Source: an uncultured delta proteobacterium
Lineage (GTDB): Bacteria; Desulfobacterota; Binatia; UBA9968
Assembly: GCA_963847445.1 (NCBI GenBank)
Contig: CAWJZV010000015.1
Location: 250,761 to 314,760 of the forward strand
Reading direction: 5' to 3'
Length of the DNA stretch: 64,000 nt
Every line of letters starts with the position of its first letter. Within the stretch, counting starts at the first letter, position 1. This document shows positions 3,289 to 31,610 of this stretch, one piece after another. The notes under the pieces were generated by a model. The model was not told where the DNA came from. It searched no databases and saw only the letters and a program-made list of their open reading frames with translations. A program made the position numbers and the translations under genes.

Positions 3289-4239
3289 ATGCAGATAATC
3301 CGTCACATCGACGATCCCGCGCTCGCCTTCGAGGGCGCCAGCGTGACTTTGGGCAACTTCGATGGCATTCACTTGGGCCATCAGGAGCTCATCAAGAATA
3401 CGGTTGACGATGCCAGGCGGCTGGGAGTGTGCTCCGCGGTGTTAACTTTCGAGCCTCATCCACTGCGCGTGCTCGCTCCCGACCGGGCGCCTAAGATGCT
3501 GCTTACCCATAAGGACAAGATGCAGCTGCTGCAAGCGCTCGGTGTCGATTGCGTGGTGATTCAACAGTTCGATCGCGCCTTTGCCGCCATTCCCGCACAG
3601 GAGTTCGTGCGCAAGTATTTGCGCGAGCGGCTGCACGCCAAGAAGGTTTGGGTCGGCAAGGATCTACGCTTTGGCAAGGGACGCGGCGGCGATATCGAGA
3701 ACTTGCGCGCCTGGGGCGCGCAATTGGAGTACGCAGTGGGCATTGTCGAGCCGGTCATGGTAGCTGGCGAGCGCGTCAGTAGCTCGCGGATTCGCGAACT
3801 CATCGGCGCCGGCGCAGTCGCCGCGGTGCAGCCGATGTTGGCGCGATACTATTTCATTTCCGGCAAGGTCGTGCCCGGTCACCGGCGCGGCCGTGAGCTC
3901 GGCTTTCCGACGGCCAACATCGTCAGCCGGGCCGAGATCGTTCCGCGCGACGGTATCTATGCGACCTTGTTCCACCTCGGCGAGAAGGTTCTGCCCAGCG
4001 TTACCAGCGTCGGGCTTAACCCTACCTTCGGCGCCGGCCCGCGCACCGTCGAGAGCTATATATTGCATTTTGATCGGGACATTTACGGCGAGTCGGTGCA
4101 GGTATCGTTCGTCGCTCGGCTCCGTGACGAATTGAACTTCGCTTCGGTGACATCGTTGATCGAGCAGATCCATGTCGATATCGCTGACGCCAAGAAAATC
4201 CTCGCAGTTCAGGGCTTTGCTGTCGACGACATAGGCTGA
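3289..4239 (+). CDS. ribF: Bifunctional riboflavin kinase/FAD synthetase
   Basis: GNFDGIHLGH, TFEPHP, VSSSRIR, GRELGFPTAN motifs. Confidence 0.96.
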   Translation: MQIIRHIDDPALAFEGASVTLGNFDGIHLGHQELIKNTVDDARRLGVCSAVLTFEPHPLRVLAPDRAPKMLLTHKDKMQLLQALGVDCVVIQQFDRAFAAIPAQEFVRKYLRERLHAKKVWVGKDLRFGKGRGGDIENLRAWGAQLEYAVGIVEPVMVAGERVSSSRIRELIGAGAVAAVQPMLARYYFISGKVVPGHRRGRELGFPTANIVSRAEIVPRDGIYATLFHLGEKVLPSVTSVGLNPTFGAGPRTVESYILHFDRDIYGESVQVSFVARLRDELNFASVTSLIEQIHVDIADAKKILAVQGFAVDDIG

Positions 4240-4254
4240 CGCAAAATCTTAAGC

Positions 4255-5319
4255 ATGGGATTGGCACGATTCACGATTGGGGTCGAGACGGCGGGCATGC
4301 GCTTGGATGTGTTCGTCGCGCGCCACTATGCCGCGCCGGCAGCAGCCGAGGCAATGAGCCGTGCCGGGGTACAGAAGCTTATCGATGTCGGTCAGGTGAC
4401 CGTCAACGGTGCGCGCATGAAGTCCAGTGTCCGGGTGAAATTGGCCGACCGTATCGAGATTCACATCCCGGCCGTGCGTGAGATCGGTTTGATCGCTGAG
4501 GATTTGCCTTTGACGATTCTCTATGAAGATCAAGATATTATTGTAATTCACAAAGCCGCTGGCATGGTCGTTCACCCCGCGGCGGGGCGTACGAGTGGCA
4601 CATTGGTCAACGCAATCTTGCACCATTGCCCGGCGATCGCGGGTATTGGCGGTGAGCGGCGGCCGGGGATCGTGCATCGTCTCGATAAGGACACGTCGGG
4701 TGTGATGGTGGTTGCCAAAAACGATTTGGCGATGCGCAGTTTGGTGGATCAATTCAAGGGCCGCACGGTGCGCAAAGAATATATTGCGCTGGTACATGGG
4801 CGCATGGCAGGGGAGCGGGGCGAGATTGACCGGGCCATCGGCCGCCATCGCAGCGATCGGAAACGGATGTCGAGTCTGCGCGTCCTCGGTAAGAGCCGTG
4901 AAGCTACGACTGAGTGGATCGTTGAGAGTCGATACGCCGTGCCGCTGGCGGACCGGGGGGTCGCTTGGTACTGTTTGATCCGTCTGTTTCCCCGCACCGG
5001 TCGCACGCATCAGATCCGCGTTCACCTCGCCGATCTTGGCCATCCTTTGGTTGGCGATCGAGTCTACGGTCGCCGTCGGACTGCGGCGCCACAAAATGAA
5101 TTATTCGGCGCAGGCATCGACGGCTTCTTGCGCCACGCGCTGCACGCCGAGAAGTTGAGCTTCGATCATGTGCGCAGCGGCGAACGGCTGGAGTTTCGCG
5201 CGCCTCTAGCCGACGACCTAGTGAACTTGGTTCAATCGCTCGAAAACCACGCGGTATCCAGCGAATCGGTCCGGGTGAAATCTTCGCGGCCAACTGGGTT
5301 GACAAGATTCGGAGTTTAA
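4255..5319 (+). CDS. rluD: RluA-family 23S rRNA pseudouridine synthase
   Basis: N-terminal S4 domain, HRLDKDTSG, TGRTHQIRVH. Confidence 0.9.
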   Translation: MGLARFTIGVETAGMRLDVFVARHYAAPAAAEAMSRAGVQKLIDVGQVTVNGARMKSSVRVKLADRIEIHIPAVREIGLIAEDLPLTILYEDQDIIVIHKAAGMVVHPAAGRTSGTLVNAILHHCPAIAGIGGERRPGIVHRLDKDTSGVMVVAKNDLAMRSLVDQFKGRTVRKEYIALVHGRMAGERGEIDRAIGRHRSDRKRMSSLRVLGKSREATTEWIVESRYAVPLADRGVAWYCLIRLFPRTGRTHQIRVHLADLGHPLVGDRVYGRRRTAAPQNELFGAGIDGFLRHALHAEKLSFDHVRSGERLEFRAPLADDLVNLVQSLENHAVSSESVRVKSSRPTGLTRFGV

Positions 5320-5327
5320 AATACTAT
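5299..5327 (+). promoter_or_regulatory. Sigma70 promoter for rho
   Basis: TTGACA(5299-5304)-N17-TACTAT(5322-5327). Confidence 0.75.
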
Positions 5328-5638
5328 TATTTCACCGAGGATCAGTTCAGCAACTCTTTTTGATCGTCCCCGCGCCATAAAAATATTCGTTCGCAGCTTA
5401 TCGATCAGAGCTTATTTTGTTTTTCAAAAAAGAGATTCTTGTCTGCGTTTAGTAGTTTGTCCCACGGACGCACTTGCCTGTGCAGCTGCGTCCGGCGCCA
5501 GCGTTGACTCGTTGCCATTGAAGTTTCGTGCAGCCACTGGCGTCTTCGGTGCTTGAATTTCCCAGCAAGCGACTGTTTAGACCTGATTGCGTCAAAAGTG
5601 GATTACAGCTTTGAGTGTTGAAAGGAGAGGCATAGTGT

Positions 5639-6964
5639 ATGGTGCGTGGTAGAACTCGATCCGCCGAGCCGGAGACCGAAGAAGAAATCGTCAAAGAAGT
5701 TGTCAAAGATAATGGGTTGAATCTCAAAGCCCTCAAGGAAAAGAAGATCGGCGATCTTGCGCTGATCGGCAAAACTTTTAATATCGAGGGCGCCGCCAAT
5801 ATGCGCAAACAGGATCTGATTTTTGCGATCCTGCAGGCGCAGACCGAGCAAAACGGTCATGTCTACGGTGAGGGTGTGTTGGAAACCCTACCCGATGGTT
5901 TCGGCTTTCTGCGCGCCCCCGATTATAACTATCTGCCTGGACCAGACGATATTTATGTTTCCCCCAGTCAGATTCGTCGCTTCAGTTTGCGCACCGGCGA
6001 TATCATTTCCGGTCATATTCGACCGCCCAAGGAAGGCGAACGTTATTTCGCCTTACTCAAGGTCGAAACGATCAATTATGAAGACCCTGAACGCGCCCGG
6101 GAAAAAATTCTTTTCGACAACCTGACGCCGCTTTATCCCAACGAGCGTTTGTGTTTAGAAAATCAGCCTACCGACTACACTACCCGAATCGTCGATTTGT
6201 TGGTGCCTATCGGTAAGGGGCAACGTGGTTTAATCGTGGCCGCGCCGCGCACCGGCAAAACCATGATGTTGCAGCATATCGCCAAAGCGATAGCGCATAA
6301 TCATCCAGAGGTGGTGTTGATCGTCCTGTTGATCGACGAGCGGCCGGAAGAGGTCACCGACATGCAGCGCTCCGTCAATGGCGAGGTGATCAGCTCGACC
6401 TTCGACGAGCCGGCGACGCGCCATGTGCAAGTGGCTGAGATGGTGATCGAGAAAGCCAAGCGCTTGGTTGAGCATGGCAAAGACGTGGTGATCTTGCTCG
6501 ATAGTATCACTCGCTTGGCGCGTGCCTATAACACCGTCGTGCCGCCAAGTGGGAAGATCCTCTCCGGTGGTGTCGACTCGAATGCGCTGCATAAACCCAA
6601 GAAATTCTTCGGTGCCGCCCGTAATATCGAAGACGGTGGCAGTTTAACCATCATCGCCACGGCCTTGATCGATACGGGTAGCCGCATGGATGAAGTGATC
6701 TTTGAAGAATTCAAAGGCACCGGCAACATGGAAGTCCATTTGGACCGGCGCTTGATGGATAAGCGGGTGTTCCCGGCCATCGATATCAATAAGTCGGGAA
6801 CTCGCAAAGAAGAATTGCTGATTCCGCGAGAAGATCTCAATCGTATTTGGATACTGCGCAAAGTCTTGTCGCAGTTGAGCGTCGTCGAATCGATGGAATT
6901 CCTGCTCGATAAGATGCATGGCAGCAAGACTAACAAAGATTTTCTCGATTCGATGAATCAATAA
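5639..6964 (+). CDS. rho: Transcription termination factor Rho
   Basis: [36 protein letters not shown]. Confidence 0.99.
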
Positions 6965-7108
6965 TAGCGATCGCGCCGGTCGTCAAACTTGCGTCATTGG
7001 GCGTTCTCTGTTAAAACCCGGAGCATTGCGTCATTTGTGTCGTCCTTAGGATCTTGAGCGCTTGCCCGCCTGGAAACGTTCTCGATCCGAAGGTTTTATC
7101 AATTCACT

Positions 7109-7186
7109 ACACACCCTTGCCGATCGTTATCGCGGTGCCTAAGAACTAGGTGCGGTGGCGAAAAGACGCGAGGGGAGGGAAAACCA
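7109..7186 (+). promoter_or_regulatory. rpsB leader (S2 autoregulatory RNA element)
   Basis: ACACAC...GGTGCC...GGAGG...AACC landmarks as in the proteobacterial rpsB leader; stems CGTTATCGC/GCGGTGGCG and CCCTTGC/GCGAGGG; directly upstream of rpsB. Confidence 0.7.
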
Positions 7187-7198
7187 CGGGAGAGCAGT

Positions 7199-7975
7199 AT
7201 GGCAGAGATTACAATGAAACAGTTGCTGGAGGCCGGTGTCCATTTTGGCCACCAGACCAGCCGGTGGAACCCGAAGATGAAACCTTACATCTTCGGTGCG
7301 CGCAATGGCATTCACATCATCGATCTGCAGCAGACGGTGTCGATGTTCAAGGATCTCGAAGCGGTGGTGCGCGACCTGGCGGCTTCCGGCGGCCATGTGC
7401 TGTTTGTCGGCACTAAGAAACAAGCCCAGGATGCGATCCGCGAAGAAGCGACCCGCTGCGGCATGTACTATGTCCACAACCGCTGGCTCGGCGGTACGCT
7501 GACCAACTTTACGACGATTCGCCAGAGCATCGAACGATTGCGTAAGATCGAAGAGATGGAGAATGATCCTAAGGTCGTCGATGCGCTAACCAAGAAAGAA
7601 ATGCTCGGTCTCAGCCGTGAAAAAGACAAGCTGGAGCAGTCGCTGGGTGGGATCAAGGCGATGAAGAAACTGCCCGACGCAATTTTTGTCATCGATCCAA
7701 AACAAGAAGAAATCGCCGTCAAAGAAGCACGTAAGCTCGGTGTTCCAGTGATCGCGGTGATCGACAGTAATTGCGATCCAGATATGATCGATTACAAGGT
7801 GCCCGGCAATGACGACGCGATCCGGGCGATTCGATTGTTCTGCTCGGCGATCGCCGAGGCGGTGATCGAAGGGCGAACGATGTACGAGCAATCCTTAGTA
7901 AAGGACAAGGTCGATGACCGGCAGGGTAGCGATGGCGCCGCGGCGACGATGGAAAGCGCGGTCGGAGGAGTTTAG
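7199..7975 (+). CDS. rpsB: 30S ribosomal protein S2
   Basis: [37 protein letters not shown]. Confidence 0.99.
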
Positions 7976-7980
7976 GCGAC

Positions 7981-8589
7981 ATGGAAGTGACAGCGAGTTT
8001 AGTCAAAGAGCTTCGGGAAAAAACCGGAGCCGGTATGATGGATTGTAAAAAAGCTCTTGCCGAGACCGCTGGAGATTTGTCAAAGGCGGTCGATTATTTG
8101 CGTCAAAAGGGGTTGGCCGCGGCGGCAAAGAAAGCCGATCGCGTGGCTACGGATGGCGCCATCGGCGCTTATGTCCATGCCGGCGGCAAGCTTGGCGTCT
8201 TGGTCGAAATCAATTGCGAGACCGATTTCGTCGCCCGCACCGCGGAGTTCCAAAGTTTGCTGAAGGATGTCGCCATGCAAGTCGCGGCGACCAATCCGCG
8301 ATGCGTGCGCCGTGAGGAAGTCTCAGCCGACGAATTCGAGCGCGAAAAGGTTATCTATCGCCAACAAGCGCTGGAGTCGGGCAAGCCGGAAAAAGTCATC
8401 GAGATGATTGTCCAGGGCAAGATGGAGAAGTTTTACTCTGAAGTCTGCTTGCTGGAACAGTCGTTTGTTAAAGATCCCGATAAGAAAGTCATTGATGTCG
8501 TCAACGATGCGATCGCGCGATTGGGAGAGAATATTCAGGTGCGCCGCTTTGCCCGCTATCACCTTGGCGAAGGGGTGGCGAAGGGCTAG
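7981..8589 (+). CDS. tsf: Elongation factor Ts (short form)
   Basis: [28 protein letters not shown]. Confidence 0.99.
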
Positions 8590-8596
8590 CGCTTAG

Positions 8597-9894
<1,298 letters not shown>

Positions 9895-30528: not shown

Positions 30529-30552
30529 TTTCAAATTATTTCCTGGGAGGAT

Positions 30553-30861
30553 GTGATGGCGAACAAATGGGACGAGCGTAAGAAGGCCCAAGAAGACGAG
30601 TACTTCGTAAAAAAAGAAAAAGAACAGCTGGCGAAGCTAAAAGCCAAGCAGGAAGCGGAAGCAAAAGAGGTGGCGAAAAAGGCCGCCTCTATGCGCTGTC
30701 CGAAGTGCGGTGACACGCTCAAGGTGCGCAGCTTCCAGAAGGTCGAGATCGATCAGTGCAACGGCTGCGGCGGTATCTGGTTGGACGCCGGCGAGTTGGA
30801 GCAGGTTGCCGAGAAGGATGAAGGCAGCTGGCTGGGTCGGTTCTGGCAAAAAAACGGCTGA
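30553..30861 (+). CDS. zf-TFIIB zinc-ribbon protein with IF1-like N-terminal helix
   Basis: CPKC...CNGCGGIWLDAGELE zinc ribbon; N-terminus WDERKKAQEDEYFVKKEKEQLAKLK; GGGAGG RBS. Confidence 0.88.
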   Translation: MMANKWDERKKAQEDEYFVKKEKEQLAKLKAKQEAEAKEVAKKAASMRCPKCGDTLKVRSFQKVEIDQCNGCGGIWLDAGELEQVAEKDEGSWLGRFWQKNG

Positions 30862-30878
30862 GATGATTCTTGGCGGAA

Positions 30879-31005
30879 GATTCGGAATCGAAATGTTGGC
30901 CGCAAAGAACGCAAAGGACACAAAAAAATTATCACCGTGTAGGGCGGGTTTTAAACCCGCCCTCTTGGAGTATCTGTGCAGCGTCGTAGGGTGCTGCTGC
31001 GCACC
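30879..31005. repeat. Composite repeat: CGCAAAGAA tandem units plus GTAG-type REP hairpin(s)
   Basis: GCCGCAAAGAACGCAAAG, GTAGGGCGGGTTTTAAACCCGCCC (30939-30962), second GTAGGGTGC..GCACC (30986-31005); second copy at ~60095-60172. Confidence 0.8.
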
Positions 31006-31050: not shown

Positions 31051-31610
31051 ATGAAAAGAATCGTAAGCTCTCTGTTGCTGGCATTGGCGATGATCTGGGT
31101 GCAAACAGCGGCTCGGGTATCGGCGCAGGAGGGCAAGATCGTGCCTTACGTGCCGACGCCTCAGGAAGTTGTCGACCGCATGCTCGAGTTGGCCCAGGTG
31201 AAGAAGGGCGATGTCGTCTACGATCTCGGATCGGGCGACGGACGCATTGTCGTCACGGCGGCGAAGAAGTACGGCGTCAAGGCGATCGGCTTCGAAATCG
31301 ATCCGGAGCGGATCAAAGAGTCCCATGAGAACATCAAGAAAGCCGGGGTTGAAAAACTGGTCGAAATCCGCCAGCAGGATATTCGCACGGTCGATCTGTC
31401 GGCGCCAACGTCTTGACGATGTATTTGTTGCCCGAGGTGAACTTGATGATCCGGCCGAATATCTGGAAGCAGATGAAGCCCGGCTCGCGCATCGTCTCCC
31501 ACGATTTCGATATGGGCGATTGGAAGCCGATGAAAACTGAACATATCAAAGACGGTTCGAGCTGGGATCACACTCTGTATCTCTGGCACGTCGAGGCAGC
31601 GAAGAAATAG
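31051..31610 (+). CDS. Class I SAM-dependent methyltransferase (FAM173/aKMT-like) with signal peptide; frameshift ~31403
   Basis: VPYVPTP, DLGSGDGRIV, GFEID; continues as TMYLLPEVN...KPGSRIVSHDF in ORF 31413. Confidence 0.88.

Follow-up and report, generated by a model that had tools for sequence, protein, structure and literature searches.

IF1, the mitochondria-targeted inhibitor protein of eukaryotes, is defined by a C-terminal dimerizing coiled coil that carries a histidine-rich pH switch. For the bovine protein, Bason et al. (2011, PMC3041923) graded residues 21–45 by the effect of mutation on F1 binding, with a strong effect at A21, F22, R25, A28, E30, Y33, F34, K39, E40, A43, A44 and L45, an intermediate effect at Q27, R37, Q41 and L42, little or no effect at K24, E26, E29, E31, R32 and R35, and no mutational data for G23, A36 and A38; the F22W substitution weakens the inhibitor. 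The bacterial zeta protein plugs F1 with its N-terminal helix and keeps its globular part outside (PMC10469736 and PMC9317440), and the latter paper, a 2022 review, reports that BLAST finds no IF1 in prokaryotes and argues that IF1 is post-endosymbiotic and only analogous to zeta. Ruc (Rv0991c-type) is described as a zinc-ribbon holdase that is activated when oxidation releases its zinc, and its genes lie near dnaK, clpB, ftsH and ridA. Here, we analyze a gene in a 64,000-nucleotide stretch of DNA (the window) from an uncultured member of the Binatia (assembly GCA_963847445.1, contig CAWJZV010000015.1, positions 250,761–314,760), the product of which carries, ahead of a zinc ribbon, a helix that, judged from its sequence, is a relative or a very close mimic of the IF1 inhibitory helix.

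The open frame runs on the forward strand from 30553 to 30861 and counts 102 codons from a GTG, with an ATG at 30556 as the very next codon. Translation likely starts at this ATG, giving a product of 101 residues, because the homologs inspected begin with MANKW; all 120 listed homologs are about 101 residues long. The product is a small cytoplasmic protein in which a conserved helix at the N-terminus leads into a zinc ribbon with four cysteines, followed by a short amphipathic tail. The ribbon exceeds the cut-off of PF13453 (Zn_ribbon_TFIIB in Pfam) with 63.8 against 22 bits (E 9e-18, residues 47–86), and this match holds both cysteine pairs, C48-P-K-C51 and C68-N-G-C71, the four zinc-ligand cysteines being invariant in a broad family alignment of 121 sequences, mostly of the type of paralog B described below (alignment A2). 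The initial annotation had the protein begin with a helix and end with a CPKC...CNGC ribbon; both elements are present, but the protein runs on for another 15 residues, of which W92 is invariant in a second alignment (A5, defined below) and L93 and F96 are invariant in the orthologs. An AlphaFold2 model based on 121 homologs, which is of modest confidence (mean predicted local distance difference test score, pLDDT, of 68), shows a single long helix at residues 2–44 (pLDDT 64–79), ribbon strands at 54–60 and 63–68, and short helices at 78–87 and 92–100. An NCBIfam scan of the window protein gave no model near any cut-off.

The likeness to IF1 lies in the N-terminal helix. A match to the Pfam IATP profile (PF04568, gathering cut-off 25 bits), which the initial annotation had looked to for support, is found at residues 3–37 of the window protein, on profile positions 50–84 of 98, with 21.4 bits (E 3.5e-4); the window protein itself thus stays under the cut-off, and four orthologs that are 81–82% identical to it pass with 26.1, 26.0, 25.8 and 25.4 bits. 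As many as 69 of the 122 orthologs match IATP at E ≤ 0.001, while any other non-ribbon family matches at most two of them. Independent branches match the same profile region: a paralog in the same genome (paralog A) at 17.4 bits, and a homolog from another taxonomic family (genome G161) at 19.8 bits, the latter also matching bovine IF1 with E 0.0027. In a search of all PDB sequences with the window protein, a zinc-ribbon structure ranks first (8yoz_A, E 2e-5) and bovine IF1 comes next (2v7q_J, E 0.019, 18.8 bits); at E ≤ 10 there are 19 matches, of which 11 are to IF1 chains. HMMER aligns residues 5–42 without gaps to residues 22–59 of 2v7q_J, and residues 5–29, WDERKKAQEDEYFVKKEKEQLAKLK, are identical to bovine IF1 at 12 of the 25 positions 22–46 (R25, A28, E30, Y33, F34, K39, E40, Q41, L42, A43, L45 and K46). 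The claim that this frame encodes an IF1-like helix ahead of a zinc ribbon, made earlier from an ungapped alignment with the same number of identities, is therefore borne out.

Two profiles built from the family sharpen this result. One (A4) was built from IF1-like members and gave E 1.2e-4 against bovine IF1; since these members had partly been picked by eye for their IF1 look, the test was repeated with a profile (A5) composed of the window protein and one member per other sampled taxonomic family, chosen regardless of IF1 likeness, with two members of family f6 among them. A5 matches bovine IF1 with E 1.3e-4 and 25.3 bits, and IF1 chains of diverse eukaryotes make up 13 of the 16 PDB matches ranked below 8yoz_A (E 5.4e-12), the other three being the plant protein At2g27730 (twice) and PSK. 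On these scores, the profile match to IF1 is real but borderline.

A further point is where the identities fall. On the grading of the mutational study cited above, the window protein is identical to IF1 at nine of the 12 strong-effect residues (R25, A28, E30, Y33, F34, K39, E40, A43 and L45) and two of the four intermediate ones (Q41 and L42), and at none of the six residues with little or no effect or the three ungraded ones; the strong-effect residues A21 and A44 are not matched, W stands at the position of F22, and Q27 of the intermediate class differs. That all 11 identities should fall within the 16 important positions out of 25 by chance has a probability of C(16,11)/C(25,11) = 9.8e-4 (hand calculation), a figure that is not independent of the profile hidden Markov model score, as the important positions are also the conserved ones. 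Because the identities concentrate on functional positions, the match is to the IF1 signature and not to a charged background.

The same positions stand out within the family, the most conserved helix residues being A11, E13, Y16 (Y or F), F17 and E23, which correspond to A28, E30, Y33, F34 and E40 of IF1. The prediction that an E-x-x-Y-F pattern would be conserved across homologs thus proved correct, with this core and the glutamate that follows being the best conserved positions of the helix. In the 122 orthologs, W5, R8, E13, F17 and E23 are invariant, and both paralogs A and B retain E-D-x-Y-F. The initial annotation had further listed the F1-binding positions that are kept, and this list is right for E30, Y33, F34, Q41, L42, A43 and L45; its W in place of F22, however, is found in the ortholog group only, and is the very change that weakens bovine IF1 in the mutational study. 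A resemblance of the protein start to the zeta subunit, also proposed, was not recovered: no zeta family or chain appeared in any HMMER search, with zeta absent among the best 25 of the 28 Pfam families at E ≤ 10 and no zeta chain in the PDB searches at E ≤ 10 (single sequence, A2 and A4) or E ≤ 1 (A5).

The ortholog group of the window protein numbers 710 proteins in the database; identities among the 120 listed are 78–100%, and several carry the name Candidatus Binatia from their source. All 30 genomes of the genus have an ortholog, 34 of 36 in the taxonomic family do, and none of 19 in the sister family f3 does, such that the ortholog group is restricted to one taxonomic family (these and the paralog tallies include the unpublished genomes G005 and G035, and the class-wide tallies given here include the unpublished G279, none of our conclusions depending on these genomes alone). 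Paralogs in the same genomes are 33–47% identical, with paralog A being 107 and paralog B about 114 residues long. The wider family has 4855 database members. Of 121 genomes sampled from the class, 88 have at least one member, for the most part only one, and in the phylum sample about 32 of 151 genomes do. Most members conserve an extra N-terminal stretch, E-K-D-R-L-G-D-K-L, which paralog A keeps and the group of the window protein has lost, and a second N-terminal type, E-K-E-E-E-Y-F-A-R, is found elsewhere in the phylum. The window copy is a derived paralog that lacks the extra stretch and has been relocated beside leuD. We note that many database copies of the protein are frameshifted, and that at one locus of genome G190 (L041, G190:C26:40000-49000, 3769–5878) three family paralogs stand in a row, the YF motif being present in the middle one only, interleaved with two genes of about 135 codons that by eye resemble GreA/Rnk-type C-terminal domains.

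Taking these observations together, we tentatively favor a stress-linked, IF1-type inhibitor of F1 ATP hydrolysis, a reading that we consider possible rather than probable. On a de-energized membrane or in a stressed cell, the free N-terminal helix would insert into the catalytic alpha/beta interface of F1, where E13, Y16, F17, L25 and L28 would pack on the C-terminal domain of beta as do E30, Y33, F34, L42 and L45 of IF1, such that hydrolysis would stop and the ATP saved would be left to chaperones and proteases that depend on it. Ribbon and tail would remain outside, replacing the coiled coil of IF1 as a regulatory or dimerizing, possibly redox-sensitive, module, and at the canonical locus the protein would be made together with a PGPGW membrane protein, a possible tether, and divergently from clpB. 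The sequence likeness, its conservation and the gene neighborhoods are observed here, and from them we infer what the protein binds, that it inhibits, and what the ribbon and the PGPGW protein do; that the ribbon might serve as a redox or metal switch is speculation, for which the one precedent we draw on is Ruc, a different zinc-ribbon protein. The modeled arrangement, in which a helix of the inhibitory type begins at the free N-terminus and is followed by a globular domain, fits either an IF1-like or a zeta-like action. We regard as unlikely the far-reaching version of this proposal, in which the family would be a prokaryotic relative of IF1, a stress-regulon inhibitor of F1Fo hydrolysis that is PGPGW-tethered, zinc- or redox-gated and co-regulated with ClpB, and that gave rise to eukaryotic IF1 through loss of the ribbon and gain of the coiled coil.

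As to the putative target, an F-type operon is present in this genome (G000) and intact in genome G014, the beta subunit of which retains the DELSEDD...ARARK stretch that we take to be the region holding the residues in contact with F34 and E30 of IF1. In the window's own genome, the atp operon (L005, G000:C7:262000-278000, about 5250–9780 on the reverse strand) has several frameshifts in alpha, gamma and epsilon, which are probably assembly errors, and an intact beta gene. In five family-carrying genomes (G237, G266, G268, G299 and G309) neither a gamma subunit nor a beta ortholog was found, their best beta match being 30–35% identical; five of 121 is about the number predicted from assembly gaps. 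In complex predictions with G014 alpha (95–502) and beta (80–469) and residues 1–45 of the helix supplied as an ortholog alignment, scores of 0.44, 0.44 and 0.45 were obtained for the helix, compared with 0.00 for two unrelated partners, but the score is not pair-specific, because an unrelated protein in place of alpha gave 0.55; the result therefore counts neither in favor of binding nor against it. Another F-type ATPase locus occurs in G014 (G014:C1:123888-129087) and in the window's genome (G000:C20:19324-19956, L002); its beta gene precedes alpha, an order that we take to be that of N-type ATPase operons, and no family member lies on that contig. Within the window, an ATP-synt_ab-type match of 98.9 bits (6185–6796; G000:C15:256945-257556) in a 442-residue frame probably belongs to a Rho-type or other RecA-like ATPase.

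Several observations weigh against an inhibitor of F1. At the level of the sequence, the window protein itself falls short of the curated Pfam cut-off (21.4 versus 25 bits), E-values of short charged helices are less trustworthy than those of globular domains, and the broad A2 profile matches IF1 with only E 0.068, more weakly than the single sequence does, with only 30 of its 121 members individually matching IATP at E ≤ 0.1; of the 12 class representatives in A5, only three reach E ≤ 0.01 individually. The equivalents of F22 and R25 (W5 and R8) are conserved within the ortholog group only, and from the matches to At2g27730 it is clear that a helix of this kind can also belong to other complexes. 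The latter protein, labeled complex I subunit P2/NDUP2, and PSK (7dtl_A) share the IF1-like helix pattern with the family profile at E 0.018–0.1. At the level of the cell, epsilon retains its own C-terminal helical domain, and a second inhibitor is thus not obviously needed; three to four paralogs per genome are not explained by an inhibitor with a single target. In none of the 88 class genomes with a member does a family gene stand beside atp genes, the closest F-ATPase gamma gene on the same contig being 31.6 kb away, and of a set of five that was checked, none adjoins atp genes. The neighbors that do recur are of another kind, namely clpB, which lies head-to-head with the family gene within 3 kb in 36 of the 88 genomes and 10 of the 17 taxonomic families with a member; a small PGPGW gene, which is directly upstream on the same strand in 34 of the 88 genomes (10 families); and, in the window's genome, ftsH, one copy of which lies, beyond an NMD3-like gene, downstream of paralog A, while another is immediately followed by paralog B. 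A role in proteostasis would explain these neighbors more directly than inhibition of F1 does. The coordinates of the features discussed are given in Table 1.

Table 1. Features of the gene and its surroundings (window positions, except for the last row, which gives positions within the named loci)
Feature	Position	Strand	Basis
Ribosome-binding site GGGAGG, 5 nucleotides ahead of the ATG	30545..30550	+	Read from sequence
Coding sequence, 101 residues and stop; GTG at 30553 would add one residue	30556..30861	+	Open reading frame list, homolog starts
IF1-like N-terminal helix, residues 3–45; core A11, E13, Y16, F17, E23, L25, L28	30562..30690	+	Pfam IATP, PDB alignment, AlphaFold2
Zn_ribbon_TFIIB domain, residues 47–86; C48, C51, C68, C71	30694..30813	+	PF13453, 8yoz_A
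Conserved C-terminal tail, residues 87–101, with SWLGRFWQK; modeled short helix	30814..30858	+	Conservation, model
GC-rich hairpin GGGCGGG, 7-nucleotide loop, CCCGCCC; 81 nucleotides past the stop	30942..30962	+	Read from sequence
Small PGPGW transmembrane protein gene (PF09656)	L044:3810-4064; L052:3292-3657; L038:4623-5048	−; +; −	

The alternative that survives best, which we nevertheless hold to be somewhat doubtful, is a proteostasis factor of the heat-shock regulon that acts on or with ClpB, FtsH or DnaK, whether as an adaptor, a regulator or a Ruc-like zinc-switch holdase, with the likeness to IF1 being due to convergence or to ancestry without a shared target. It draws on the clpB pairs just described, 34 of which are within 1.3 kb, and on the ftsH arrangements, both of which are repeated in G014 and one of which, that of paralog B, is also found in G015; a RidA-like gene, identified by eye, lies beside the copy in genome G120, and Ruc offers a precedent in a zinc ribbon encoded near dnaK, clpB, ftsH and ridA that becomes a holdase on oxidative loss of zinc. 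A clpB or PGPGW link is present in 13 of the 17 families, and the PGPGW protein may tether the family protein to the membrane. The neighbors point to a role in stress or proteostasis, which is compatible with inhibition of F1 and does not require it. This alternative, however, leaves the identities at the F1-contact residues of IF1 unexplained, and, whereas the active region of Ruc is variable and disordered, the helix is here among the most conserved parts of the protein; its strong conservation therefore suggests one specific binding surface. Adjacency to clpB is absent in families f1, f6, f7, f81, f85 and f88, two loci linked to clpB showed no CIRCE heat-shock operator, PGPGW has no match in the genome of the window, and the window gene itself stands beside leuD and a methyltransferase gene. 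FtsH, considered as a partner for the whole family, was rejected, as adjacency is confined to the window's genus: it is missing for paralog A in G015 and for both paralogs in G019, and in none of 16 genomes elsewhere in the phylum, for which all FtsH matches were listed, does a family gene lie near ftsH.

Three further observations were made at these loci. Between paralog A and ftsH lies a gene for a 167-residue zinc-finger protein with an NMD3-family match of E 7.5e-7 (L027:3395-3898, reverse strand). About five ftsH genes are found in the window's genome (contigs C48, C23, C28, C17 and C6) and at five loci in G014, compared with one to three in most of the phylum sample. Downstream, the family gene of G226 and G313 is followed by a DUF1329 (LolA-like) gene in convergent orientation and by an MMPL gene, and G130 appears by eye to have the same arrangement (loci L037, L045 and L046).

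We think it quite unlikely that the resemblance to IF1 comes from chance or from the composition of a charged amphipathic helix and is without functional meaning, the zinc-ribbon protein having some other role. The points that can be cited for it are the position of the window protein under the Pfam cut-off, the weakening of the match in A2, a protein atlas search that gave no usable match, and a search of 1.84 billion representatives with the helix alone, which returned 18 matches, all of them frameshifted or truncated forms of close relatives in the family, with no eukaryotic IF1, no stand-alone helix and no other architecture; in a library of this size, however, a match of about 20 bits could not pass. 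Short forms that looked like stand-alone helices proved to be truncations. Chance sits poorly with the concentration of identities on functional positions, with four orthologs above a curated threshold, and with two family profiles at E of about 1e-4, behind which the next ranks are almost all IF1, with no generic coiled coils. Natural controls point the same way: the ATP synthase b, b', delta, epsilon and gamma subunits of a sister genome gave no IATP match at E ≤ 10, and K/E-rich members of the EEEYF type, which have the same YF and a different second half, gave none at E ≤ 0.05. Because other charged helical proteins thus give no IATP match, the likeness appears to go beyond chance or composition.

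Least probable of all, and in our view improbable outright, is a zinc-ribbon regulator of transcription or of another nucleic-acid process that would be encoded divergently from its target clpB and use the helix for dimerization: divergent regulator–target gene pairs are common, the Pfam name refers to a transcription-factor zinc finger, some sources label homologs as nucleic-acid-binding Zn-finger proteins, and A11, V18 (A in most other members), L25 and L28 form a heptad-like stripe, but these names are automatic annotations, Pfam and NCBIfam scans of the window protein detected no DNA-binding domain, a DNA-binding regulator would not usually have a co-oriented upstream PGPGW partner, as the family gene does in 34 of 88 genomes, many members lie away from clpB, and the IF1-specific pattern is left unexplained.

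In the window, the gene follows leuC, leuD and a dienelactone hydrolase gene, from which it is separated by 27 nucleotides, and precedes a methyltransferase gene, with ABC-transporter genes also in the surroundings; the same order is repeated in G014 and, minus the hydrolase, in another genus. The methyltransferase gene (31051–31610) is split in two frames of 121 and 65 residues, whereas relatives have one frame of 153–199 residues, and the frameshift near 31410 is either an assembly error or a mark of a pseudogene. The hairpin beyond the stop codon possibly marks the end of the transcription unit; it has no T run and was not called by the terminator scan, and around the gene the promoter and terminator scan yielded site numbers no higher than those of shuffled sequence. 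One contig of 239 nucleotides from an RNA library of freshwater sediment covers 30681–30917 with three differences and stops at 30917, although carry-over of DNA is possible; the remaining RNA contigs cover only the upstream hydrolase gene, the shares are small, and a lack of cover elsewhere carries no information.

In the literature searched, we found no prokaryotic relative of IF1 and no description of the helix–ribbon pair, of the clpB–PGPGW locus, of a function for PF13453 or of 8YOZ; papers outside that literature may exist, and the Pfam IATP model already touches a few orthologs, such that databases may show the domain pair. A bacterial family with the IF1 inhibitory signature would reopen the question of the origin of IF1, and, if it were indeed a prokaryotic relative, would overturn the position taken in the literature that prokaryotes lack a counterpart of IF1. 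Should inhibition of F1 be correct, the family would join epsilon and zeta as the third kind of F-ATPase inhibitor in bacteria, and would tie the heat-shock response to the control of ATP hydrolysis. With ClpB or FtsH as the target instead, the conserved unit of clpB, PGPGW and helix–ribbon genes would still constitute an uncharacterized stress module.

Compared with IF1 (PF04568; bovine, PDB 2v7q), the window protein is likewise small, with an amphipathic helix that has the same core at the free N-terminal end. Unlike IF1, it begins at the equivalent of IF1 residue 18 and thus lacks the segment (residues 13–20) that contacts gamma in IF1. It also differs in having W at the position of F22, in being encoded by a bacterium rather than being a eukaryotic mitochondria-targeted protein, and in that residues 46–101 form a zinc ribbon and a short tail, with no histidine-rich C-terminal coiled coil.

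In alphaproteobacterial zeta, the gene lies outside the atp operon and the globular part is a helical bundle, in contrast to the zinc ribbon found here. With zeta of Paracoccus denitrificans, the window protein shares the concept of an N-terminal helix with a globular domain that remains outside.

The structure closest in the ribbon, 8yoz_A, carries it at the N-terminus of an 82-residue chain, without a preceding IF1-like helix. The FmdB-type model TIGR02605, which we take to be the one to which Ruc belongs, matches the window protein with E 0.33. Like Ruc, the family combines a small four-cysteine zinc ribbon with a hydrophilic extension and has genes near clpB, ftsH and ridA, the chaperone and protease neighborhood being seen for the family (clpB in 36 of 88 genomes, ftsH for the paralogs) and not for the window gene. 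In Ruc, however, the ribbon is N-terminal and the extension variable and disordered, whereas here the extension is N-terminal, helical and highly conserved, and the cysteine pairs are 17 residues apart in Ruc and 16 here. The sequence evidence favors comparison with IF1 and zeta, while the gene context favors comparison with Ruc, and the two could be reconciled if the protein, induced by stress, slowed ATP hydrolysis and kept ATP available for ClpB, FtsH and DnaK.

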